Assembly: GCA_025362115.1 (NCBI GenBank) | Contig: JANYIK010000072.1 | Coordinates: 1-46,007 of the forward strand | Direction: 5' to 3' | Source: Methylophilaceae bacterium | GTDB taxonomy: Bacteria > Pseudomonadota > Gammaproteobacteria > Burkholderiales > Methylophilaceae | DNA: 46,007 nt | Shown: piece by piece, positions 3,671 through 46,007 of the stretch | Layout: every line of letters starts with the position of its first letter | How positions within the stretch are numbered: the stretch's first letter is position 1 | The notes under the pieces: generated by a model | Databases searched by the model: none | The model's input: the letters and a program-made list of their open reading frames with translations, nothing else | What the model was told of the DNA's origin: nothing | Translations under genes and position numbers: made by a program

Positions 3671-4558
3671 TTACTCGGTTTTGAAGCCTGCCGGAGGATT
3701 GAGAATGGTGAACCCAACGTCTTGCTGGAAGTGATATTGTTTTTGCTCGTCTTCACGCACCAACAGCAGTTCTGGAGATTCTTGCATCTTCACCAGTTTG
3801 ATCACTTTGCCACCCTTGAGCTTGACCAGCACAAAAGGGTTGGGCTGACGACTAGGCATGTATGGCTCTACCGAATCGGCGCGTAATTCTGCCCAGTTGA
3901 CAAACCAGTCGTTCAATTCGGCTTGATTTGGACTAGGTTTGTATTTGCTGGCAGCGCTGACTTTCCACTTGCCGTCGTCGGTTTTGTCTACATTGAGATT
4001 CGTTCCTTCCCATTGTTCCAAAGCACTAAAGTCAAAGCCGGCAATCACTTCATCCTTAGCCAATGGATGCTTGTCCATGAACTCCAAGGGCTGCACCGTG
4101 GCACTTTCACCATACTTGGAATCAAGGGTATAAACTTGATTTTCATGTGCAACAAACTGTAGGCCACCAACAGGGTTGAACATGCCGAAGGAGAAAGCTT
4201 TGTCATCTGCCTTCACTACCATTTTCGGGTTATCCAGCCCGAATTGTGCAGCATTGGTGAGTGGCTGTTTTTCAGCGCTGGTGGCCAGCACCACAGAAAG
4301 TACACGACCAACAGACAATTCATCGGCGCGACCTTGGTAAGGTTCTACCATCATCCAGCGGCCATTTATTTTCTCGAACACCAACGCTTTTTTGGCAGGG
4401 ACTTCGATACGCAGGTGGGTGACGCTTCCCACGTCAAAGCTGGCGACATTGTAGTTTTGTTCTTGCTTCACCACCTCCGCCGGACGCTGGTAGACATAAA
4501 CGCCCAAGCCAGCGACGACGAGTAACAACAACACATTCAATATCCAGCGTGACTTCAT
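3671..4558 (-). CDS. DUF4340-like membrane-anchored protein of a GldG-type ABC cluster
   Basis: 295 aa with an N-terminal TM helix. It lies immediately downstream of the GldG-like gene. The family call rests on context and a weak motif memory. Confidence 0.5.
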   Translation of the reverse strand: MKSRWILNVLLLLVVAGLGVYVYQRPAEVVKQEQNYNVASFDVGSVTHLRIEVPAKKALVFEKINGRWMMVEPYQGRADELSVGRVLSVVLATSAEKQPLTNAAQFGLDNPKMVVKADDKAFSFGMFNPVGGLQFVAHENQVYTLDSKYGESATVQPLEFMDKHPLAKDEVIAGFDFSALEQWEGTNLNVDKTDDGKWKVSAASKYKPSPNQAELNDWFVNWAELRADSVEPYMPSRQPNPFVLVKLKGGKVIKLVKMQESPELLLVREDEQKQYHFQQDVGFTILNPPAGFKTE

Positions 4559-28487: not shown

Positions 28488-30233
28488 ATGCGCAATATTG
28501 TTGAAATTTCAGTGCCGGACATCGGCAATTTTGATTCTGTAGATATCATCGAGGTCCACATCAAGTCAGGTGACAACATTGCCGTTGATGACTCGCTGAT
28601 TACGCTGGAATCCGATAAGGCTTCCATGGACATACCTGCCACCCATGCAGGTAGCGTCAAGGAAGTCAAAGTCAAGGTAGGTGACAAGGTCGCCAAGGGC
28701 TCCCTCATCCTGCTCCTAGATGTTGCTGAGGAGGCACCCGCTGTAGCACCAGCACCAGTGGTAGAACAATCTGCTCCGGCGGCAGTTGCCCTTGTAGGCC
28801 TAAGCGAAGCCGGCAACAATGATATTTCCACAGAAATACTGGTATTGGGCGCAGGGCCTGGCGGCTATACCGCTGCTTTCCGTGCCGCAGACCTCGGCAA
28901 AAAGGTGGTGTTGGTAGAACGTTACCCAACGCTAGGAGGCGTGTGCCTGAATGTAGGATGCATCCCCTCCAAAGCCTTGCTACATGCGGCTAAGGTTATT
29001 ACCGAATCCGAAGAAATAGCGGCGCATGGTATCAATTTTGGGCGCCCAGTGATTGCACTCTCAAAACTGCGCGACTGGAAAGAAAACGACGTGGTCGCCA
29101 AGCTCACTGGCGGCTTGGTACAACTCGCCAAACAGCGCAATGTCACCGTGGTACAAGGTGTAGGGAAATTCATCAGCCCCCATCAAATCGCCGTGACAGC
29201 GACAGATGGCAAGGTGACCACGCTAGGTTTTGAACATGTCATTATTGCCGCCGGTTCACAAGCCACCAAATTCCCTGGGGCACCAGATGACGAACGCATC
29301 ATGGACTCTACCGGCGCATTGGCTTTGGCAGACATTCCGAAACGCATGCTGGTCATCGGCGGCGGCATCATCGGCTTGGAAATGGGCACCGTCTATGATG
29401 CCCTAGGCTCCAAGGTGAGCATCGTGGAATTCATGGACGGTTTGATTCCTGGATGCGACCGTGACTTGATACGCCCCCTGCAAAAACGCATGGAAAAACG
29501 TTTCGAAAGCATCATGCTGAGCACCAAGGTATCCTCGATGGAAGCCAAGAAAGACGGAATCCATGTGACTTTTGAAGGTGCCAACGCCCCCAAGAATACC
29601 CAGGTCTATGACCGTGTGCTGGTCTCCATCGGGCGTCGCCCCAATGGCAAGAATATCGGCGCCGAGAACGCAGGGATCGCTGTTGACGATTGCGGCTATA
29701 TTGCCGTAGACAAACAGATGCGTACCAATGTGCCTCACATCTTCGCTATCGGCGATATCGTCGGCCAACCAATGCTGGCACACAAAGCTACGCATGAGGC
29801 CAAGGTGGCGGCGGAAGTCATTGCTGGGCACAAGGTTGAGTTCCAGGCGTTGACCATCCCATCGGTTGCCTATACTGACCCTGAAGTCGCTTGGGCCGGA
29901 ATATCCGAGACTGAAGCCAAGGAAAAAGGCATGGAGATTGAGAAAGCTTCATTTCCATGGGCTGCTAGTGGCCGTGCTCTCTCCATAGCGCGCACCGAAG
30001 GTCTGACCAAGCTTATTTTCGATAAGGAAACCAAGCGTGTGATTGGTGTAGGTATCACTGGCACCAATGCCGGAGAACTCCTTGCAGAAGCCGTGCTAGC
30101 GATTGAAATGGGCGCTGATGCGGAAGATATCGCGCTCACTATTCACTCACACCCCACACTCTCGGAAACAGTGGCATTTGCGGCGGAGATGGCAGAAGGT
30201 ACAATCACCGACTTATTCATCCGAAAAAGATAG
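28488..30233 (+). CDS. lpdA: Dihydrolipoyl dehydrogenase E3 with an extra N-terminal lipoyl domain
   Basis: Residues 1-80 repeat the lipoyl domain (LESDKASMDIP). FAD motif GAGPGGY and redox-active GGVCLNVGCIPSK follow. Confidence 0.95.
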   Translation: MRNIVEISVPDIGNFDSVDIIEVHIKSGDNIAVDDSLITLESDKASMDIPATHAGSVKEVKVKVGDKVAKGSLILLLDVAEEAPAVAPAPVVEQSAPAAVALVGLSEAGNNDISTEILVLGAGPGGYTAAFRAADLGKKVVLVERYPTLGGVCLNVGCIPSKALLHAAKVITESEEIAAHGINFGRPVIALSKLRDWKENDVVAKLTGGLVQLAKQRNVTVVQGVGKFISPHQIAVTATDGKVTTLGFEHVIIAAGSQATKFPGAPDDERIMDSTGALALADIPKRMLVIGGGIIGLEMGTVYDALGSKVSIVEFMDGLIPGCDRDLIRPLQKRMEKRFESIMLSTKVSSMEAKKDGIHVTFEGANAPKNTQVYDRVLVSIGRRPNGKNIGAENAGIAVDDCGYIAVDKQMRTNVPHIFAIGDIVGQPMLAHKATHEAKVAAEVIAGHKVEFQALTIPSVAYTDPEVAWAGISETEAKEKGMEIEKASFPWAASGRALSIARTEGLTKLIFDKETKRVIGVGITGTNAGELLAEAVLAIEMGADAEDIALTIHSHPTLSETVAFAAEMAEGTITDLFIRKR

Positions 30234-37398: not shown

Positions 37399-39303
37399 TT
37401 AAACGTGTTTCAACCTATCGTAAATTTCCATCATGCGCGGTAAAGCGCGCAACATGGCGGCGATGACCTCGGGGTCAAAATGCTTGCCAGCGTCTTCCTG
37501 CATAGCTTCCAGCGCCTTTTCCACCGGCCAGGCATCTTTGTAAGGACGCTTGGAGGTCAGCGCATCGAATACGTCTGCCGCAGCGATAATGCGGGCTGAT
37601 AGCGGTATATCCTGGCCTTTCAAGCCTGCGGGATAGCCGCTGCCGTCAAATTTTTCATGGTGACACTCGGCGATTTCGATACCCACTTGAAACACTGTGT
37701 GTCCCAGCGCTTGCACTTGCGCCTCACTCTTACGCAGCACCTCGCCGCCTATCACCGGATGGCGCTCCATCTCTTTGCGTTCTATAGGGTCTAGCCGCGC
37801 GGGTTTTAGCAATACGCTATCGGCGATACCCACCTTGCCGATGTCGTGCATGGGAGCAAAATTGAACACATCACGCACATAAGCCGGAGTAATCTGCGCC
37901 ATATAAATTCCCTCCTTGCCTAGCTCTTCGGCCACCAAGGCCGAATAGAGCGCCATACGCACCAAGTGATCGCCCGTTTCAGGATCACGACTTTCAGCGA
38001 GCTTTGCCAGGCCTTCTACGGCAGCCACCACCAGGCTTTCCATCACCACGGTTTTTTCCAGCACGTGTGAAATAGTCGCGGCAATGTTATTCAAAAATTC
38101 CACATGCTCTGACTTATACCCCTCTTGCTTACTGGCGAACACCATCACCGCTTGATGTTCACCACTCAGTACAGGCATATACACCGCCGAGTGCATACCG
38201 GCATTAGCCAGAACGCATTCCAAGAGATGCGGCGAATTAAGCGGCGTGAGTGTAAAGGCAATTGGCGCAGAGGCTTGCATCAGATGCGCCATAACGCCTT
38301 GCTTGGCATCAAAACTAACACCATCTTTCAATGCTCTGGTGTGTGAACTGTAATGCCGCTCCAATGTTAGGCGGCCACGATCGGGTGTAGGGTAAAAAAC
38401 GCCCACCCAATCCAGCGGAACAAACCCTTGAAATTCATCGTGGACAAAACGCAGCATCTCGTCCAGTTTGTTGCCTTGGTTGATGCGATCTGTCAGCCGG
38501 AAAATACCGTTGATACGCTGCGTCAACAAGTTAAACGCTTGTGTCATCTGGCCAATTTCGCTAACGCCATGCACGGTCACCTGATGACTAAAATCGCCCT
38601 GTGCCACACGCGAAAAACCTTCAATCGTATACTTGAGCGGCTTTATAACAGCACGCTGCACGATCAACATCACCAATATCACCAACACCAAGCCTAGGCC
38701 GCCAGCCACCCACTGAAACAAGCGAATTTGGTCTAATTTCTTTTCCATCATGCGTTGAAAGGCTCCGCTCAGCCGATCTGACGATTTGGTCAATAGTGCG
38801 CCGTGCGTCTCAATATATTCGGCAGCCCAAGTTAAACGTGGTTCGGTAAGATTCGCTCCGAGCTTGTCTTGTAGACCCTTATGAAAATGCATCCAGTCAC
38901 TCATGGTTTGGTGCAACTGAGCGTTGAGTTCACTATCGAAATTACACTTGATGACTGAGGTATGATCGCCTACCAGTTCTGCGTCTATCTGGCGGCTTTC
39001 AAGTGAGCGGATGATTTTGTCGTAGAGTAAGGTTTGTTTTTGTAAGTCTTGCCAATAAGTCGCCAAGTCACGCGCGTATTTATCATCGTCATCTGGCGCG
39101 ACCTTCGCATAGTGGTGCGCCTGCTCCATCATGGTCTGGCTCAGTACGCGCAACTGCCCGGCCAAATTGAGAATGAGGTAGTCGTGCTTGCGCAGATGAA
39201 GTGCGTACAGGGTATAACCCAGCGTACTCACCATCAGCAAAAAAATGGCTAAAATCGCGGCGCCGATTTGGGTGCGTAAGGAATTTAGCCTGAGACTTAT
39301 CAT
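37399..39303 (-). CDS. Membrane sensor HD-GYP phosphodiesterase (periplasmic sensor, HAMP, GAF-like and HD-GYP parts)
   Basis: 634 aa. Two TM segments bracket a sensor region of about 170 aa. The C-terminus carries HDIGKVGI and HHEKFDGSGYPAGL. The ATG lies 5 nt after the DoxX stop. Confidence 0.88.
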   Translation of the reverse strand: MISLRLNSLRTQIGAAILAIFLLMVSTLGYTLYALHLRKHDYLILNLAGQLRVLSQTMMEQAHHYAKVAPDDDDKYARDLATYWQDLQKQTLLYDKIIRSLESRQIDAELVGDHTSVIKCNFDSELNAQLHQTMSDWMHFHKGLQDKLGANLTEPRLTWAAEYIETHGALLTKSSDRLSGAFQRMMEKKLDQIRLFQWVAGGLGLVLVILVMLIVQRAVIKPLKYTIEGFSRVAQGDFSHQVTVHGVSEIGQMTQAFNLLTQRINGIFRLTDRINQGNKLDEMLRFVHDEFQGFVPLDWVGVFYPTPDRGRLTLERHYSSHTRALKDGVSFDAKQGVMAHLMQASAPIAFTLTPLNSPHLLECVLANAGMHSAVYMPVLSGEHQAVMVFASKQEGYKSEHVEFLNNIAATISHVLEKTVVMESLVVAAVEGLAKLAESRDPETGDHLVRMALYSALVAEELGKEGIYMAQITPAYVRDVFNFAPMHDIGKVGIADSVLLKPARLDPIERKEMERHPVIGGEVLRKSEAQVQALGHTVFQVGIEIAECHHEKFDGSGYPAGLKGQDIPLSARIIAAADVFDALTSKRPYKDAWPVEKALEAMQEDAGKHFDPEVIAAMLRALPRMMEIYDRLKHV

Positions 39304-39308
39304 CTACA

Positions 39309-39818
39309 TCATTCCTTCTTGCAGCAACGCTGCATTAGCCAATAATCCAAACTCCACTTGCCCGCGCCGCCAAACAGTAAGGGTAAAAACATCACCAGAT
39401 ACAACAAAGGTAATTTGTAGTTGCCCAAACCGTCGCCGTCTTCATCCACAATGCGATAACCCTTTAACAACTCGGATACCGTACTCCAATGTTCCGGCCA
39501 ATGTACGCTGGCAATGGCAACCACGGTCAGAATCATCAAGGACACGGTAAAAAAGCGTGTGGCGAATCCGAGCAATATGGCCGCAGCGCCTACCGTTTCA
39601 AAGAAGATAGAAATATTCCAGCTGACGCTAGCCGGCAACAGATTGAAAGGGAAAGGAAACGTAATATCGGTAAACCAATTAGGCCCATGCAGTTTCTCAA
39701 ACCCCGCCTCGCCGAACTCCCAAGCCAGTATCAGGCGTAGCACCAAAGGCGGAATGATAGGAGCGAGGCTTTCGGCGATGCCCACCAGTTGACAATAGAT
39801 TGCGGCTAGTTTTTTCAT
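39309..39818 (-). CDS. DoxX-family membrane protein (fourth gene of MNIO cluster 1)
   Basis: 169 aa with 4 hydrophobic segments. It holds the position typical of DoxX genes following DUF692/DUF2063 pairs. Confidence 0.75.
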   Translation of the reverse strand: MKKLAAIYCQLVGIAESLAPIIPPLVLRLILAWEFGEAGFEKLHGPNWFTDITFPFPFNLLPASVSWNISIFFETVGAAAILLGFATRFFTVSLMILTVVAIASVHWPEHWSTVSELLKGYRIVDEDGDGLGNYKLPLLYLVMFLPLLFGGAGKWSLDYWLMQRCCKKE

Positions 39819-39874: not shown

Positions 39875-40630
39875 CTACAAGGCTCTAAGCACGCCGATAA
39901 TGACTTGTTCCAACCTTAGATTTTCCAGTATCTCCAAACCGCTGTTGATCACCACGTCCGGCTTGGGATGCTGCAACTCTTGTGCAATTTGCGTCAAAGC
40001 CTGCAAGCCGGTTGATGTTCCCTCTGCCAGCAAGGCCAACAGACGTGCGCTCACCGGATTCAACACGATGAACTTCACTTCATCATCGGCGCGTCTGAAA
40101 GCCACAATCTGCGTGGGTTGGCTGTCAGGTTGCGTTGGTTTGTAGCGCTTGCCAATACGCTGCACTGCGTAAGGGTAACTCAGCAGAGCCAGCGCTGGCG
40201 TCAATACCGGACAAGATGTCAGTAAATCGCCTTGTGGATCAACATGCTCGGGCATTACCGCGTCCGAAACCGCCAGCGACAACTCTATCCATTCGTAGTG
40301 AGTCAAGCTGTGCAGGAACGGCGGATAGTCGGTTTGCGGCTCTGCTTCTAGCCAGCGCAAAAATTCTTCCGGTATCTGGCGAAATATCGGCGTGGCGCAC
40401 TGATGCTGCACAAAAAAGCGTCTTACCAAGCGCGTCCAGCGCCGCACACCCAGCACTTCTCGAGTCAGCGGAAAGCAAGACTCTACTAATCCTTGCAGAT
40501 TGTTGAACACAATCTCGTTATACACCGCCATACGCCGCACGCTCACTCCAGCGGGACGTGGCGCAACTTTGGGGTTGCGGATATGGCGCGTGAATTCTGT
40601 CTGGTATTGCTGAAAAGCCGGCGCGTTCAC
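39875..40630 (-). CDS. DUF2063-family partner protein of the MNIO enzyme (HvfC/BufC-like)
   Basis: 251 aa. The N-terminal [15 protein letters not shown]...[12 protein letters not shown] pattern is typical of DUF2063. Its start overlaps the DUF692 stop by 4 nt. Confidence 0.8.
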
Positions 40631-41490
40631 GCTGCGCCCTTCTTTTGTGGCGTAACACTATGGCGCTGCTGCAATAGGGCAATGTGATTGATTTCCTGCT
40701 CCAACTCGGCAAGCGGTGGCATATTGGTGTCGCGCTCCAGCAAGGTGGGCGCTACGCCAAATAGCCTATACGTCTCTTCCAGCAAGTCCCACACGGGGTC
40801 TATCACCGGCGCACCGTGGGTATCAATCACCAAATCCTCTGCCTCGCGCAAATGGCCTGCGGTGTGGATGTAAGCGATACGCTCCCCGGGCAAGCTACGC
40901 AGAAACTCCTGCGGATCGAAGCTAAAATTGACGCTGTTGACGTAGATATTATTCACGTCCAGATGCAAATTGCAGTCTGCCTCTTCCAGCACGGCGCGGA
41001 TAAAGGTCAGCTCATCCATCTCAGCGATGGGCGCGGCAACGTAGTAAGAAGAGTTTTCTACCGCGATGCGGCGTTCCAGAATGTCCTGGGTGCGGCGTAT
41101 GCGCGCAGCGACGTGTTTGACTGCCTCCTCAGTAAAAGGAATGGGCAGCAAGTCATACAAATAGCCATTGGCGCTGCAATAGCTCAGGTGTTCGGTATAA
41201 AGCGGGATACGATACTGCTCAAGAAAACCTTTGACGCGCTGCAAAAACACCTCATTCAGCGGGTCCGGCCCACCCAAAGACAACGATAAACCGTGGGCGA
41301 CGATGGGATAGCGTTCAGCAAACCAAGCAAGCTGGCGCGCGCGCGCGCCGCCTATGCCTATCCAGTTTTCTGGCGCGATTTCAAAAAAATCTATGGCGGA
41401 GGGGGGGGTGATAGGATCTCTGGCCTGAAGTTGGGGCATTAACTCCCGCTTCAGGCCGAGTCCTGCGCCAAAGAGTGCCTTGGCATTCAT
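40627..41490 (-). CDS. DUF692 multinuclear non-heme iron oxidase (MNIO; MbnB/HvfB/BufB family)
   Basis: 287 aa with [59 protein letters not shown] and LERD. This is the TIM-barrel DUF692 motif series. Confidence 0.88.
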
Positions 41491-41496
41491 TGCAAA

Positions 41497-41838
41497 TTAC
41501 TTCTTGTCGGCGTGGCAGCTACCTTCTTTGGCTTTTTTGTCTGCGCTGCAAGTCGCTTCTTTGGCTTTCATTTCAGCGCTGCAATTACCTTCTTTCGCAG
41601 CCTTCATTTCTGCACTACAAGTCGCTTCTTTGGCTTTTTCTTCCATGGCTTTTTTCTTGGCAGCGCTACACTTGCCGGTGCCACATTTGCCATCCTTTGC
41701 GTCGGCCACTTGATAGGCTTTGGTCAAAGCGTTCATTGCGAATGGGTTTTGATCGGCGTTGACCACTGGCGACATCGCCAGAGAGGCTGCGAAGGTACCA
41801 CCGAGAACGATGGCGAGGGTTTTCTTTTGTGCGTTCAT
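41497..41838 (-). CDS. Secreted 6-Cys repeat peptide, putative RiPP precursor (HvfA-like)
   Basis: 113 aa. AAGGAG precedes the ATG. The signal peptide ends VNA, followed by DQNPFAMNALTKAYQVADA. Then come DGKCG, TGKCS and four Lys/Glu-rich units: KEATCSAEMKA, KEGNCSAEMKA, KEATCSADKKA and KEGSCHADKK. The stop lies 6 nt before the DUF692 start. Confidence 0.8.
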   Translation of the reverse strand: MNAQKKTLAIVLGGTFAASLAMSPVVNADQNPFAMNALTKAYQVADAKDGKCGTGKCSAAKKKAMEEKAKEATCSAEMKAAKEGNCSAEMKAKEATCSADKKAKEGSCHADKK

Positions 41839-41877
41839 TTGTAAAGCTCCTTAAAGTAAAAAAATAAAAAGTACTAC

Positions 41878-42120
41878 TTAATGTTGATGCAGTTTCTCGC
41901 GGATGGTATCTCTTGCTGAATCAGACAACTTGACGCTTTCGTCTTGCTCCTCACGACGCAATTGCTGTTGCAACGCCGTTCGTAACAAACGCAACTGTGC
42001 GACAAACTGGCTACACGGATCGCAAATACTCAGATGCAACCACATGGCAAAACGTTCCCGCCGGGTCAAGGGGCGATCCAACGCTTGAGAGGCCAAACGA
42101 CTCGCTTGCTTGCAGCTCAT
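41878..42120 (-). CDS. Soluble zinc-binding (ZAS-type) anti-sigma factor
   Basis: 80 aa counted from the ATG at 42120, which has GGAG 6 nt upstream. An alternative ATG is at 42126. The ligand pattern is C3-x25-H29-x3-C33-x2-C36, and there is no TM segment. It lies directly downstream of the ECF sigma gene. Confidence 0.75.
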   Translation of the reverse strand: MSCKQASRLASQALDRPLTRRERFAMWLHLSICDPCSQFVAQLRLLRTALQQQLRREEQDESVKLSDSARDTIREKLHQH

Positions 42121-42155
42121 CTTCATCTCCCTCAAAATAAAACGGTTTATCGCAA

Positions 42156-42776
42156 TCACATGCCGCTCCGCTCCGCGCTGGTTCTTTTCAACCAATGCAT
42201 CTCCATACATTTACGTAGACCCATGCGAGAGCGGTACAGCATCACCCATGCATTCGTCGCCGAGATTTCCAGTTCCTTACAAATTGTTTCGTTATCTTCC
42301 TCTTCTATTTCACGCAGCAAAAACAAGCGCGCTAAATTCTTGGGTAGGCGATCCAGGCAGCCTTGTAATATCTGCCAAAACTCCTGTTGCTCCATCAGCC
42401 TCGCCGGGTCGCCCAGTGAAGAAGGTTTCTCAGTCCAATGGTTAGAGTCATCAAAAAATTCATCCATACCGGGCTCACTCATTTCTTCTGGCGGGTCTTC
42501 ATCATATAAAGGCTGTTCGCGCTGAGCGCGGCGCATCAAATCAATAATCTTATGCTTGAGAATGCCAGTGAGCCAGGTGCGCGCAGAGGATTTTCCAGTA
42601 AAACTATCGCTACTTTTTATCGCTGCCAGCAAGGTTTCCTGCACCGCATCTTCCGCCAAATGTTGGTCACGCAACCGCGTCAGTGCAAAGCGATAGAGGT
42701 AATCGCCATGTTCGTTAAGCCAGTCGTTCGGATTGGGGGTATCGGTTTGATTCAGTATTTTCTCCATATGCCGCAT
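42156..42776 (-). CDS. ECF-type sigma-70 family RNA polymerase sigma factor
   Basis: Region 2 LYRFALTRLRDQHLAEDAVQETLL and region 4 ETICKELEISATNAWVMLYRSR are present, with a long acidic linker between them. Confidence 0.88.
   Translation of the reverse strand: MRHMEKILNQTDTPNPNDWLNEHGDYLYRFALTRLRDQHLAEDAVQETLLAAIKSSDSFTGKSSARTWLTGILKHKIIDLMRRAQREQPLYDEDPPEEMSEPGMDEFFDDSNHWTEKPSSLGDPARLMEQQEFWQILQGCLDRLPKNLARLFLLREIEEEDNETICKELEISATNAWVMLYRSRMGLRKCMEMHWLKRTSAERSGM
42251..42281 (-). promoter_or_regulatory. Candidate ECF-type promoter, copy 2, inside the sigma gene 3' part
   Basis: The minus strand reads TGTAAG-GAACTGGAAATCTCGGC-GACGAATG. It has the same 6-N17-8 architecture as copies at 42877 and 45817. 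It lies about 130 nt upstream of the anti-sigma start. Confidence 0.5.
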
Positions 42777-42876
42777 TCAATCACAGAATGATTAAATTTT
42801 CTATGGTTAAAGTACATCTTCTCTAACAAGCCTATCGCCCTCAGATAGCCCTACTCAGTTAGGTTCTTTAAAAAAA

Positions 42877-42907
42877 TGTAAGGAATGGAAATACGGCCGG
42901 ACTAATG
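42877..42907 (+). promoter_or_regulatory. Candidate ECF-type promoter, copy 1, upstream of the EF-hand gene
   Basis: TGTAAG-GAATGGAAATACGGCCG-GACTAATG lies about 80 nt upstream of the ATG at 42987. An A-rich tract is immediately upstream. Confidence 0.5.
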
Positions 42908-42986
42908 GCTGTCATAAACAAATTTATGATGTTCACAAATTTGCAACCTTTACTATTTATGCTTCAACTTTTTAGGGAGATTTATC

Positions 42987-43454
42987 ATGGCAATTCAATT
43001 TAAGCAAACCGCAATCGCAATCGGCGTAGCACTGGCGGCTTTTTCAACTGTTGCATCCGCTGATGCAATGATAGGCAGTGGTGGCTACAGCAAACTGCAC
43101 ACCATGGAAATGATGAAAATGATCGATGCTGATGGTAACCACATGGTAACCAAAGACGAATTCATGAATTATTACGGTGAGATTTTCGATGCACTGGATA
43201 CTGACAAAGACGGTTCGATTGACGCTAAGGAATGGGTTGGCACCAAGGGTGATAACAAGATCAGCATCGCTACCGGTGGCTATAGTTCACAACTGCGTAC
43301 CATGAAGATGATGAAAGCAATGGACACCAATGGTGACCACAAGGTAACCAAAGATGAGTTCATCAAGTTCCATGAGGCTATCTTCAATACGATGTCCAAA
43401 GGCGGTACCGAAGTTGATGGTAAAGGCTGGTTGGCTCGCACTACTGGCAACTAA
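42987..43454 (+). CDS. Secreted EF-hand calcium-binding protein, Met-rich, internally duplicated
   Basis: The signal peptide ends ASA. Three canonical 12-residue EF loops are DADGNHMVTKDE, DTDKDGSIDAKE and DTNGDHKVTKDE. Each half starts GGYS..L.TM.MMK. Confidence 0.85.
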   Translation: MAIQFKQTAIAIGVALAAFSTVASADAMIGSGGYSKLHTMEMMKMIDADGNHMVTKDEFMNYYGEIFDALDTDKDGSIDAKEWVGTKGDNKISIATGGYSSQLRTMKMMKAMDTNGDHKVTKDEFIKFHEAIFNTMSKGGTEVDGKGWLARTTGN

Positions 43455-43471
43455 GTTTTTAGCTTGACGTA

Positions 43472-43500
43472 AAAAAGGCCGACTATGTCGGCCTTTTTTG
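43472..43500. terminator. Bidirectional rho-independent terminator
   Basis: An A6 run, stem GGCCGAC/GTCGGCC with loop TAT, and a T6 run. It sits between the convergent EF-hand gene and the cluster 2 DUF2063 gene. Confidence 0.85.
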
Positions 43501-43579
43501 TTTATTACAGCTGTAATAAATTTGTGGCTATGGTTAAGAGCGAAGCATATCCTGAGGACTCACAATATAAGACATCACC

Positions 43580-44359
43580 CTATACAATAGCGATAACCAT
43601 ACCATTGGAAATCCAATTATTCAGATAATTAATAAAAGCGACAGGTGCTTCTTCTGTGTGCCATTGCGTTAGCAGTTCACACATATTAGCAAAATCATCA
43701 CCATGCACGATGGCCTGTATGAGCGCATACTCGTCCGCAGTCATTGAGCGAAATTCGGACAGGCGATCCAGGCCACGCCATAGCAACCAATAGCTCTCGG
43801 GTTGCGAATTGGCAGCGCCAGGACTTACACCTGCTCGCAAGCATTGCCAACTCTCAACGCTATTCCATTCTGCCGCAAATAATTGCACACTGGGATGTAA
43901 GCGCAAGCGCATTTCTGGCCAATTCTCGGCAGGAAGCATGCGTATATCCTCAATACTGATACTGACCGCATCTAAGGCATCAAATACGTCCAGTAACAAT
44001 CTTTCAAAGTTGGCGAATTCTGCCAATATTGGGTGTGCTGAGAACGGTGCGTTGTTCCGTAGAAAATCGGGTAAGTGGCTGGTGTAGTCGCGTAAGGAAG
44101 TATAGCGCGAAGGATGCTTAACGACGTATCCGTCCACCATCGCTTCAAACAACTCATCGCCCAAGTAAAGTCCTAACAACTCATGATTGGTGTCTATGGC
44201 CTCACGAAAACGCATTTTGTAGGCGTTATTATAGATTTGTAGCTTGGTGTCTACCGACGATTTGCCTTTAACCGCCACATGAGGTGCCAGTATATCGGGG
44301 TCTCCAGTGAGCAAGTAATCCAAAAAGGCTTGCTCTAGTGCTTGTAGTGCTTTAGGCAT
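43580..44359 (-). CDS. DUF2063-family partner protein (BufC-like), cluster 2
   Basis: 259 aa with LQIYNNAYKMRFREAI near the N-terminus. Its start overlaps the DUF692 stop by 8 nt. Confidence 0.75.
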   Translation of the reverse strand: MPKALQALEQAFLDYLLTGDPDILAPHVAVKGKSSVDTKLQIYNNAYKMRFREAIDTNHELLGLYLGDELFEAMVDGYVVKHPSRYTSLRDYTSHLPDFLRNNAPFSAHPILAEFANFERLLLDVFDALDAVSISIEDIRMLPAENWPEMRLRLHPSVQLFAAEWNSVESWQCLRAGVSPGAANSQPESYWLLWRGLDRLSEFRSMTADEYALIQAIVHGDDFANMCELLTQWHTEEAPVAFINYLNNWISNGMVIAIV

Positions 44360-45218
44360 GAAGTACCAAGTTTTCTGGTTTGGGTACTTCGTCTAGTTCT
44401 AGTGTTTGTAGGAATAACTGCCGCGCTTGAGCAAGCTCCGCATGGAGTTCTTCAAAAACAGGAATGTTGCCATCGCGTTCTATCATGGTGCTGACCGCAC
44501 CAAAGTGCATTAAAGCTTTACGATAAAGCGACCAAACATCGTCACATACATTGTGGTCGTGAGTGTCAATCACATAATCGCCATAGTCAGAATGTCCCGC
44601 CAGATGAAATTGCCTGACCCTTTTGGGATCAATTGCTTCAAGGTATTGCTCAGCGCAAAAACCATGATTACGCGAACTGACGTAGATATTGTTGATGTCC
44701 AACAGAATAAAGCAATCCGCTTGGTTTGCGACTTCACTTAAAAACTCTACCTCGCTCATATCCGCATGATTGAAGTCCAAATAACTAGAAGGATTTTCTA
44801 GTAATATTTGACGACCAAGAAAGTCTTGCACTTGTTGCACGCGGCTTACTACATGAGCCAATGCTTCTTGCGTATAGGGCAGAGGAAGCAGATCATGACT
44901 ATTGATGTGGTTTACCGTTGTCCAGCATAGGTGATCAGAAATCCACTCGGGTTCAATCTCTGCTACTAAAGCACGGAGTTGTTTGAGGTAATCAGTATTC
45001 AGCGGATCGGTTGAACCAATTGAGAGCGAAACTCCGTGCATCACTATGGGGTAGTGTTCCCGCACTTGATGTAGATAGTATTTCGGTTTTCCACCGCCAA
45101 CGAAGTAGTTTTCAGTAAGAATTTCAAACCAGTCTACTAATGGACGCTCTTGGATGACATAGTCGTAATGCGGCGTACGCAAGCCAAGGCCAAAACCTAA
45201 AAAGTGTGAGTCATGCAT
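44352..45218 (-). CDS. DUF692 multinuclear non-heme iron oxidase (MNIO), cluster 2
   Basis: 288 aa with GFGLGLRTPHY, WFEILTENY, MHGVSLSIGS, ISDHLCW, LLENPSSY, LLDINNIYVSS, HLAGH, IDTHD and IERD. Confidence 0.88.
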   Translation of the reverse strand: MHDSHFLGFGLGLRTPHYDYVIQERPLVDWFEILTENYFVGGGKPKYYLHQVREHYPIVMHGVSLSIGSTDPLNTDYLKQLRALVAEIEPEWISDHLCWTTVNHINSHDLLPLPYTQEALAHVVSRVQQVQDFLGRQILLENPSSYLDFNHADMSEVEFLSEVANQADCFILLDINNIYVSSRNHGFCAEQYLEAIDPKRVRQFHLAGHSDYGDYVIDTHDHNVCDDVWSLYRKALMHFGAVSTMIERDGNIPVFEELHAELAQARQLFLQTLELDEVPKPENLVLHA

Positions 45219-45231
45219 ATAAAAACCTAGA

Positions 45232-45258
45232 TGCGTCGGAACATAAAATTCCGACGCA
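45232..45258 (-). promoter_or_regulatory. Intercistronic stem-loop between precursor 2 and its MNIO gene
   Basis: A 10-bp stem, TGCGTCGGAA/TTCCGACGCA, closes a 7-nt loop. On the transcribed strand it is followed by ATCTAGGTTTTTAT and then the ATG at 45218. Confidence 0.6.
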
Positions 45259-45275
45259 ACGTACTGAATGGCAGA

Positions 45276-45722
45276 TTATACTTTTCCGCCAAGATCGTCA
45301 CAGGCTTTTTGTGGAACGCTGACAAAGCCGTGACCTTTGCAACTGCCCATACCAGCACAAGCGTTGTCTGCCGTCTTGCAATCGTTGTGACCCTTGCAAG
45401 AATTCACGCCAGTGCACTGTTTAAGATCAGCCTTGGCAACACTGCCCCAATAACCATCTTTGATTGATCCACCCATTTGACCACAGGCTTTGCTCGGCAC
45501 GGCAACGAATCCTTGACCTTTACAGCTGGCCATGCCAGCACAAGCATTATTCGCAGTTTTGCAGTCATTATGCCCTTTACATTGATTGAGACCAGAGCAA
45601 TGAATGAGATTGGTAGAGTCATCACTGCCAGCGAACGCACTAGAAGCCGTCGACATGAGACCTGCAGCTGCAAGAGCAAGAGCGACACCAGCGTGTTTTC
45701 CAGATTTTTTAAGTAGTTGCAT
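45276..45722 (-). CDS. Secreted 12-Cys peptide, putative RiPP precursor (bufferin BufA2-like 6/12-Cys type)
   Basis: The ATG at 45722 has AAGGA 7 nt upstream. The signal peptide ends AFA. Two homologous 6-Cys modules follow: CSGLNQCKGHNDCKTANNACAGMASCKGQGFVAVPSKAC and CTGVNSCKGHNDCKTADNACAGMGSCKGHGFVSVPQKAC. Confidence 0.85.
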   Translation of the reverse strand: MQLLKKSGKHAGVALALAAAGLMSTASSAFAGSDDSTNLIHCSGLNQCKGHNDCKTANNACAGMASCKGQGFVAVPSKACGQMGGSIKDGYWGSVAKADLKQCTGVNSCKGHNDCKTADNACAGMGSCKGHGFVSVPQKACDDLGGKV

Positions 45723-45763
45723 AGCCAAATCCTTTCAATATGAGTAAGAGAGACGAATAGAAA

Positions 45764-45782
45764 TTGAAGACCTTGCCTTCAA
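45764..45782. promoter_or_regulatory. Inverted repeat TTGAAG-N7-CTTCAA in the precursor 2 leader
   Basis: A perfect 6-bp inverted repeat, extendable to about 8 bp as an RNA hairpin. It lies between the candidate promoter (45787-45817) and the start codon (45722). Confidence 0.45.
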
Positions 45783-45786
45783 CTTT

Positions 45787-45817
45787 CATTAGTCGCAAAT
45801 TGCCTAGAGAACTTACA
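45787..45817 (-). promoter_or_regulatory. Candidate ECF-type promoter, copy 3, upstream of the 12-Cys precursor
   Basis: The minus strand reads TGTAAG-TTCTCTAGGCAATTTGC-GACTAATG, about 65 nt upstream of the ATG at 45722. The upstream flank is AT-rich. Confidence 0.5.
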
Positions 45818-45915
45818 TCGGTTTGGAAATTTATTTAGATCAAAGTCGGCTATGCCGATTTTTTTAGGGACTTATATACTTAACTTCCTAGGAGTGGAAA
45901 ATGTGGTTCGATACA

Positions 45916-45998
45916 TTCTCCGTTCGTCCCCGTATCAAGTACGGGGCAGGCTCTGAGTAAGCGGCGAAGCCGCTATATCGAAGGATACGAACGGAGAA
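45916..45998. repeat. Nested-hairpin REP/MITE-like element at the window edge
   Basis: A 12-bp outer inverted repeat, TTCTCCGTTCGT/ACGAACGGAGAA, encloses two hairpins. These are CCCCGTA/TACGGGG (45928-45946) and AGCGGC/GCCGCT (45960-45974). Confidence 0.55.
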
Positions 45999-46007
45999 CA
46001 CTCACCA

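Follow-up and report, generated by a model that had tools for sequence, protein, structure and literature searches.

A shared bipartite motif at three sites of a Methylophilaceae contig, one inside an ECF sigma gene, as predicted promoters for two bufferin-type clusters and an EF-hand gene

We analysed a contig of 46,007 bp from an uncultured methylotroph of the Methylophilaceae (hereafter the window), in which the bipartite motif TGTAAG-N17-GACKAATG lies upstream of a gene for a secreted EF-hand protein, upstream of a BufA2-type bufferin cluster, and within the gene of an extracytoplasmic function (ECF) sigma factor, ahead of its anti-sigma gene and a second MNIO cluster. We consider these sites, at a probability of roughly three in four, to be cognate promoters of the adjacent TIGR02943-type sigma factor, which is paired with a zinc-binding anti-sigma (ZAS) protein of the MseR/HrsE kind. 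This assignment follows from the match of the sites to the reported promoter consensus of Neisseria sigmaE, from conservation of hexamers and spacing in related loci, and from conservation of synonymous positions in the intragenic copy.

Three motif sites and their resemblance to ECF promoters

An exact pattern search returned exactly three matches in the window. The first, P_EF (42877-42907, plus strand), is separated by 80 nt from the start codon of the EF-hand gene (ATG, 42987); the second, P_int (42251-42281, minus strand), precedes that of the anti-sigma gene (ATG, 42120) by 131 nt; and the third, P_buf2 (45787-45817, minus strand), lies 64 nt upstream of the probable start of the BufA2 precursor (ATG, 45722). 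An earlier sequence-only reading had reported three equally spaced copies at these positions, one upstream of the EF-hand gene, one in the sequence encoding sigma region 4 about 130 nt before the anti-sigma gene and one about 65 nt before a 12-Cys precursor, and all of this is borne out by the measured values. The motif was absent from 100 dinucleotide-preserving shuffles of the window, and simple arithmetic, with uniform base composition, predicts about 7e-4 occurrences per window and about 0.05 per 3-Mb genome. Tolerating up to two mismatches added no further site in the window (shuffle mean, 0.39). A chance origin of the three sites is ruled out by the shuffles.

A position weight matrix (PWM) trained solely on 18 non-coding sites from other loci, whose -35 consensus is TGTAAGGATT, placed the same three sites at ranks 1 to 3 in the window, with 26.5 bits for P_EF, 22.1 for P_buf2 and 20.3 for P_int. 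The next scores, 12.1 bits at 29159 and 11.4 bits at 196, fall inside the shuffle range and reveal no extra sites. P_EF consists of a -35 element TGTAAGGAAT (42877-42886), preceded by an A/T run, and a -10 element GGACTAAT (42899-42906), with a predicted start at about 42913-42915 and the EF-hand gene as its predicted target; the corresponding elements of P_buf2 are TGTAAGTTCT and GCGACTAAT. For P_int the predicted start is at about 42243-42245, and the predicted targets are the anti-sigma, precursor 1, MNIO, DUF2063 and DoxX genes. All three sites open with (T)GTAAG, which extends to GTAAGGAA in P_EF and P_int and to GTAAGTTC in P_buf2. The spacer string TGGAAAT, to which the sequence-only reading had also drawn attention as common to P_EF and P_int, does not hold up: orthologous EF-hand promoters keep there only the extended -35 TGTAAGGA(A/T)T, and we regard the likeness as coincidence.

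The sigmaE consensus of Neisseria, deduced from the promoters of the autoregulated NMB2140-2145 operon, which carries rpoE and mseR, and of msrAB, comprises a -35 GTMAGBWTT, a spacer of 12-13 nt and a -10 CGTCTAAH (PMC2893595). With a spacer of 12 nt, GTAAGGAAT/GTAAGTTCT of the window are in register with this -35, and CGACGAAT, GGACTAAT and CGACTAAT are in register with CGTCTAAH, each copy agreeing at 6 or 7 of the 8 positions and all three carrying A for T at the third base of the -10. Written as GTAAGGTT-N12-13-CGTCTAA, the consensus aligns base for base with TGTAAGGAAT-N13-CGACTAAT. The window thus contains -35 and -10 elements of the Neisseria type together with an adjoining ECF sigma and a ZAS anti-sigma that displays H-x3-C-x2-C plus an N-terminal Cys. 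The resemblance to ECF -35/-10 promoters that had been suggested from the layout is supported by the consensus in register, by footprinting across related loci and by synonymous-site conservation.

Related loci came from three sources: 23 distant ones among the matches listed, at 41-57% sigma identity (L001-L022, L059); only two close relatives from a metagenome scan (L081, L082); and 12 further loci found by matching exact proteins, among them Methylovorus and L112, the closest relative, in which all three transcription units occur. In every site found, the gap between TGTAAG and GAC is 17 nt. In 12 Methylophilaceae loci, 168 kb in all, the PWM gave 18 matches above 14 bits, of which 17 fell at four expected places, listed as intragenic (in each of the 12 loci), upstream of the EF-hand gene (3), of BufA2 (1) and of DoxX (2); the sole match elsewhere, at position 9096 of L082, is borderline (14.1 bits). 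L081, L112 and L114 have the EF-hand promoter as well, with a different spacer but with identical TGTAAGGA(A/T)T, GGACTAAT, preceding A/T run and about 13 nt past the -10. Likewise, the BufA2 promoter is kept in L112 with conserved hexamers and spacing and a divergent spacer.

Further afield, the motif was found 48 nt upstream of a DUF2282/Buf1-type precursor (L014), upstream of DoxX-sigma (L001), upstream of genes that follow the anti-sigma gene (L005, L007, L012) and in the sigma/anti-sigma intergenic region (L022). It accompanies this sigma/anti-sigma pair in loci from Betaproteobacteria, Gammaproteobacteria, Acidobacteriota, Zixibacteria and Verrucomicrobia. We derive a family-wide consensus, TGTAAGG(A/T)(A/T)T-N13-CGAC(T)AA(T), with strictly fixed spacing. 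We also note a strong additional motif just upstream of DoxX in two Methylophilaceae relatives (L120, 9797-9826, plus strand; L121, 9852-9881, plus strand), which indicates that DoxX has its own predicted sigma-dependent promoter there; no copy lies just upstream of DoxX in the window.

The copy inside the sigma gene and alternative readings

P_int lies in the part of the sigma gene that encodes the Sigma70_r4_2 domain (ICKELEISATNAW; I-C-K-E-L-E-I-S-A-T-N-A-W), where it reads TGT AAG GAA ... GCG ACG AAT for C166 K167 E168 ... A173 T174 N175. Of the 14 bases that the motif specifies, 8 are set by Cys166-Lys167 and Thr174-Asn175, which do not vary in the close family, so that a coincidence needed to be ruled out. 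An alternative reading is that only the two intergenic copies are promoters, that the intragenic one is forced by a conserved C-K-E-L...T-N-A-W, and that the anti-sigma gene and cluster 1 are co-transcribed with sigma. Besides the constraint imposed by these residues, it is favoured by the borderline PWM score of P_int relative to shuffles and by the Thr codon, which is mostly ACC and not the consensus T.

We compared codon usage in an alignment of 29 non-redundant sigma genes with Cys-Lys, with about 41-100% identity to the window sigma and a G+C content at third positions of 0.39-0.84; its 16 distant genes have a mean mutual identity of 44% (range 33-82%). At the motif, Cys166 is encoded by TGT in 28 of 29 genes (28% elsewhere in the same genes; Fisher p = 5e-11), Lys167 by AAG in 29 of 29 (44% elsewhere; p = 9e-9), residue 173 by NCG in 29 of 29 (32% elsewhere; p = 6e-13) and Glu168 by GAA in 25 of 27 (56% elsewhere; p = 6e-5), but the orthologues are phylogenetically related, and these p-values overstate their independence. 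The motif-column counts were corrected by hand for L011, misaligned by one codon, and the p-values were calculated from the uncorrected 27/29, 28/29 and 28/29.

Residue 173 varies between Ala, Pro, Ser and Thr, yet its codon is always NCG, and the adjacent codon 172 varies freely, with seven different codons. Trp aside, the third positions of TGT, AAG and NCG are the three most conserved among the 184 degenerate third positions of the gene, and pairwise identity at third positions in the 16 distant genes is 34% gene-wide versus 79% at the motif columns. These observations, made over a wide range of base composition, are not expected if the protein alone dictates the motif. Moreover, the two parts of the element are mostly gained and lost together: nine of ten homologues without Cys-Lys are also without NCG (L020 keeps ACG), and in six of those without Cys-Lys (L005, L007, L022, L083/L084, L086) the motif is instead found downstream of sigma. 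Synonymous-site conservation thus indicates that DNA, and not protein alone, is constrained here as a bipartite element of the same form as the intergenic promoters, and we judge a purely protein-forced copy to be unlikely.

In three orthologues (L010, L012, L019), x-Ser-Asn is encoded as NCG TCT AAT, so that the intragenic copy has the -10 of Neisseria, CGTCTAAT, exactly; L012, whose gene is of the Cys-Lys type, carries a second motif copy after the anti-sigma gene; and the corresponding position of the sigma gene in Chromobacterium violaceum reads TGTAAC...GCGACCAAC. A Shine-Dalgarno-like reading of AAGGA inside TGTAAGGAA was set aside, as it leaves unexplained why NCG, 17 nt away, is conserved along with it. 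Since the third base of the Thr codon is usually C and not T, the promoter inside sigma may be weak, and possibly deliberately sub-optimal.

On balance we lean, with less assurance than for the promoter assignment as a whole, towards the view that the DNA encoding region 4.2, the -35-recognition region, doubles as a cognate promoter of the same sigma factor. This dual coding would be kept by selection in Betaproteobacteria, in at least one genome labelled Gammaproteobacteria and in one from Zixibacteria, and would limit residue 173 to amino acids with NCG codons. Sigma would then be constitutive, and the anti-sigma and copper-peptide pathway inducible, with negative feedback only.

It is improbable that the sites are real ECF promoters read by an ECF sigma other than the adjacent one, from another place in the genome. 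The part of the genome seen here is a single contig of 46 kb, and related genomes do have further ECF sigmas nearby, such as an RpoE/RseA pair in L117. However, the motif travels with this sigma/anti-sigma pair across phyla and is embedded in this sigma's own gene, and the Neisseria counterpart is autoregulated and controls msrAB, the matching consensus having been deduced from exactly those two promoters (PMC2893595). Least credible of all is an operator for a regulator other than a sigma factor, for example a DUF2063 protein: the N-terminal domain of this family is annotated as putatively DNA-binding (Pfam; PMC2954202) and the motif co-occurs with DUF2063 genes, but these proteins are now regarded as MNIO partners (BufC/HvfC), the motif also occurs in sigma/anti-sigma loci without a nearby DUF2063 gene (L004, L009, L010, L019), it matches the reported sigmaE promoter consensus, and its asymmetric, bipartite form, with a gap fixed at 17 nt, a spacer of variable sequence and a constant orientation towards a downstream gene at 48-131 nt, is the geometry of a promoter and unlike that of a palindromic or direct-repeat operator.

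The assignment of the three sites to the adjacent sigma factor has to be set against several observations, in addition to the relatedness of the orthologues. When the window was shuffled 20 times by mononucleotides, the best match of one shuffle equalled the 20.3 bits of P_int (the maximum was 20.4), so the case for this site is carried by conservation and not by its score. In most orthologues the intragenic copy has C at the K position (GACCAAT), whereas the intergenic consensus has T, and the EF-hand copies carry GGAC, not CGAC. A simple sigma-70 scan found no sigma-independent promoter upstream of the sigma gene, and the likeness of this sigma to NMB2144 is drawn from published description and not from direct sequence comparison. 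The proposal of the sequence-only reading that one motif links both MNIO clusters and the EF-hand gene is consistent with our results, with the reservation that the K position is not strict in intragenic orthologues.

Genes around the sites and transcription of the sigma gene

The ECF sigma factor (42156-42776, minus strand; probable start ATG at 42767) matches Pfam Sigma70_r2 and Sigma70_r4_2, and scores 209 bits against NCBIfam TIGR02943, for a cut-off of 162. Its database copy, P0001, has 203 aa, and the sigma homologues are from Methylophilaceae. The anti-sigma (41878-42120, minus strand) is a cytoplasmic ZAS protein of 80 aa that matches Pfam zf-HC2 and NCBIfam NF052368 'antisigmaE' (64.7 bits; cut-off 50); it reads MSCKQ...WLHLSICDPC, which corresponds to C3-x25-H29-x3-C33-x2-C36.

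Downstream, on the same strand, follows precursor 1 (41497-41838), which carries a signal peptide and whose six Cys lie in (D/E)(G/A)xC(G/S) repeats. It has no Pfam or NCBIfam match, and its assignment as an EGKCG/oxazolin-like precursor is a tentative one made from the repeats. Next are MNIO enzyme 1 (40627-41490, minus strand; Pfam MbnB_TglH_ChrH, E = 2e-103), the DUF2063/HvfC-type partner protein 1 (39875-40630, minus strand; Pfam DUF2063 and NGO1945_C) and a DoxX membrane protein (39309-39818, minus strand; Pfam DoxX), encoded by the last conserved gene of operon 1. NGO1945, from the gonococcal counterpart operon, is the namesake of the NGO1945_C domain. The synteny of DoxX is kept in L081, L112, L114, L116 and L119-L123.

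A gene for a HAMP-GAF-HD-GYP protein of 634 aa (37399-39303, minus strand), of the cyclic di-GMP phosphodiesterase type, starts 5 nt past DoxX on the same strand, a short gap from which it may be the final member of the operon driven by sigma. DoxX and HD-GYP genes are arranged likewise in L112; in L114 and L116 a methyl-accepting chemotaxis protein gene is found instead, after a gap. At 41401-41410, in the 5' part of the MNIO enzyme 1 gene, lies a homopolymer of eight or nine G, read as C on the coding strand; it encodes T-P-P-S and is a possible slippage site or assembly-error hotspot.

The second cluster, on the minus strand, encodes a BufA2-type 12-Cys bufferin precursor (45276-45722; NCBIfam NF050166 Cu_RiPP_BufA2, 138.6 bits for a cut-off of 60), MNIO enzyme 2 (44352-45218; Pfam MbnB_TglH_ChrH, E = 5e-112) and the DUF2063 partner protein 2 (43580-44359; Pfam DUF2063). 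Both clusters are ordered precursor, MNIO, DUF2063, which fits the layout of bufferin/oxazolin clusters, and cluster 1 adds DoxX.

Between the stop codon of the BufA2 precursor and the start of MNIO enzyme 2, a terminator scan reported a stable hairpin with a U-rich tail (45232-45258, minus strand), with a fold energy of -19.2 kcal/mol (z = -3.5). It is kept in L112 (about 4437-4463, plus strand; z = -6.6) with compensatory changes of the stem from GGAAU/GUUCC to GGGGU/ACUCC. This hairpin is probably an attenuator or partial terminator, which would make transcript of the precursor more abundant than that of the enzyme. Direct reading of the sequence also showed GGCCGAC-TAT-GTCGGCC, a perfect inverted repeat between A6 and T6 (43471-43499) that the simple terminator scan did not report; it is likely to be a bidirectional terminator that closes the EF-hand gene and the convergent buf2 operon. 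A search of 41000-46007 for known RNA families found none.

Divergent from sigma is the gene of the EF-hand protein (42987-43454, plus strand), which is secreted, has no Cys and matches Pfam EF-hand_1/7/6/5; gene and promoter are kept together in L081, L112 and L114. Lanmodulin was considered and rejected, the NCBIfam score being 33.9 bits for a cut-off of 135 and the EF loops being without the lanmodulin-type proline. Although the host family is methylotrophic, we regard it as probably a periplasmic Ca-binding protein of the ordinary kind. In two Thiobacillus loci (L011, 8921-9271, plus strand; L013, 7180-7527, plus strand), the homologue of precursor 1 is fused to EF-hand motifs. These fusions correspond to the Buf_EGKCG/EF-hand chimaera of PMC12452194, whereas in the window the EF-hand protein is encoded by a separate, divergent gene with its own predicted promoter.

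The sequence-only reading had noted no motif copy upstream of the sigma gene, and our scores agree with it: on the sigma strand the best PWM score in 42777-43100 is -4.9 bits, compared with 20-26 for the three sites, which excludes even a weak cognate site. Nor is there a motif upstream of sigma in the 12 Methylophilaceae loci. Positive autoregulation from a cognate promoter in that position thus has no counterpart in the window, and the sequence fits the suggestion that sigma might drive its anti-sigma and effectors with no direct positive autoregulation. Where relatives have no EF-hand insertion, only 25-120 nt separate sigma from a preceding DUF1841 gene, a short gap that suggests transcription of sigma by read-through. 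We also observed that a block abutting the start of sigma, 42777-42810, is kept in four relatives (alignment of the window, L112, L081 and L114); on the sigma strand it reads TAGAAATT.TAA..ATTT.GTGATTGAATG and matches neither the ECF motif nor the sigma-70 consensus.

Related regulons and a proposed circuit

The nearest published parallel is the sigmaE (NMB2144)/MseR (NMB2145) pair of Neisseria (PMC2893595, PMC3240639), which shares with the window a ZAS anti-sigma that is small and cytoplasmic and has the same Cys/His spacing, a cluster of the MNIO/DUF2063/DoxX type at the same locus and a very small regulon. In MseR the residues are Cys4, His30, Cys34 and Cys37, and those cysteines are needed for activity (PMC2893595). 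In contrast, the Neisseria promoter lies upstream of NMB2140 and transcribes the whole operon, sigma included, and positive autoregulation results, whereas the order in the window is sigma, anti-sigma, precursor and enzymes, with the promoter inside sigma. The third base of the -10 also differs, being A and not T in most copies, and the targets in the window include the BufA2 cluster and the EF-hand gene, with no msrAB in the window. A search seeded with a Silvimonas homologue (Neisseriales-like) returned Chromobacterium and Chitinimonas and no Neisseria, and no Neisseria sequence was among the matches listed from the genome scan either.

In Haemophilus influenzae, RpoE2 and HrsE (67 aa) are likewise an ECF sigma and a ZAS anti-sigma (PMC7907618). 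RpoE2 controls a doxX/COG3767/UPF0276(DUF692)/DUF2063 cluster, the oxazolin hvf operon, and barely activates its own gene (PMC7907618), but its targets, which include msrAB and dmt, are unlinked to the sigma gene, and neither a promoter motif nor an intragenic promoter is reported for it in PMC7907618. The same paper terms sigma factors of the Neisseria sigmaE/MseR type (TIGR02943) ECF group 13; literature searches with the motif string or 'ECF13' returned only unrelated papers.

Caulobacter sigmaF/NrsF resembles the window in that one ECF sigma serves two bufferin clusters (buf1, buf2) through a common bipartite motif, GTAACC-N16-CGAA, with weak autoregulation under metal stress (PMC3511200, PMC11626156). 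Its anti-sigma, NrsF (DUF1109), is however a membrane protein, and the sigma belongs to another ECF group, whereas the window encodes an 80-aa zf-HC2 protein. The promoters differ as well: the window has GTAAG(G/T)-N18-C(G/T)AA, 2 nt longer and with G in place of C at position 5, and the 2-nt difference holds when the GTAA and CGAA/CTAA cores are aligned. Sigma and anti-sigma genes have been reported in Buf1 but not Buf2 clusters (PMC12452194).

For the position of P_int, the closest analogue is P3 of E. coli rseA (Rhodius et al. 2006, as described in PMC8595263), which is sigmaE-dependent, lies inside rpoE and transcribes rseABC without sigma. The position, motif and DNA-level conservation of P_int were all observed here. 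P3 is about 230 nt upstream of rseA, belongs with another ECF group and promoter sequence, and coexists with a sigmaE-dependent promoter upstream of rpoE, whereas no upstream cognate promoter was seen in the window. Unlike P3, P_int would also drive a biosynthetic cluster.

Taken together with the gene order, the assignment of the three sites to the adjacent sigma factor leads us to propose the following circuit, in which sigma dependence, start positions, inducing signal and circuit behaviour are all inferred. Sigma would be made from a sigma-independent promoter and held by the ZAS anti-sigma until thiol-reactive stress, such as oxidants or thiophilic metals like copper, inactivates the Cys/His zinc site and releases it. 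The sigma-RNA polymerase would then fire P_EF for the secreted EF-hand protein, P_buf2 for the BufA2 precursor, MNIO and DUF2063 proteins, and P_int, inside the last 90 codons of the sigma gene, for the anti-sigma, the EGKCG-type precursor, MNIO, DUF2063 and DoxX. Induction would thus yield new anti-sigma and effectors and no extra sigma; as P_int excludes the coding start of sigma, we propose negative feedback without positive autoregulation.

The coupling of bufferin-type clusters to an ECF sigma through a common promoter is already known from Neisseria, Haemophilus and Caulobacter. What appears to be new, as judged from sequence, lies in the details: a stand-alone EF-hand gene as a predicted target (EF-hand fusions to EGKCG precursors being known, PMC12452194), a BufA2 cluster under a ZAS-type ECF sigma, and the deep conservation of a predicted promoter embedded in the coding sequence of sigma region 4.2. 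For this uncultured member of the Methylophilaceae, the analysis provides a sequence-level regulon in which an EGKCG/oxazolin-type cluster, a BufA2 cluster and an EF-hand protein would be placed under one redox- or metal-sensing switch. It also widens the Neisseria sigmaE consensus to a family motif, TGTAAGGWWT-N13-CGACTAA, that is usable for regulon prediction in many genomes and could reveal unlinked bufferin and accessory genes. The intragenic copy would represent a clean case of a regulatory signal that constrains codon and amino-acid choice in the regulator's own gene and, if the proposed circuit is true, its feedback would be negative only, unlike the canonical ECF design with positive autoregulation.

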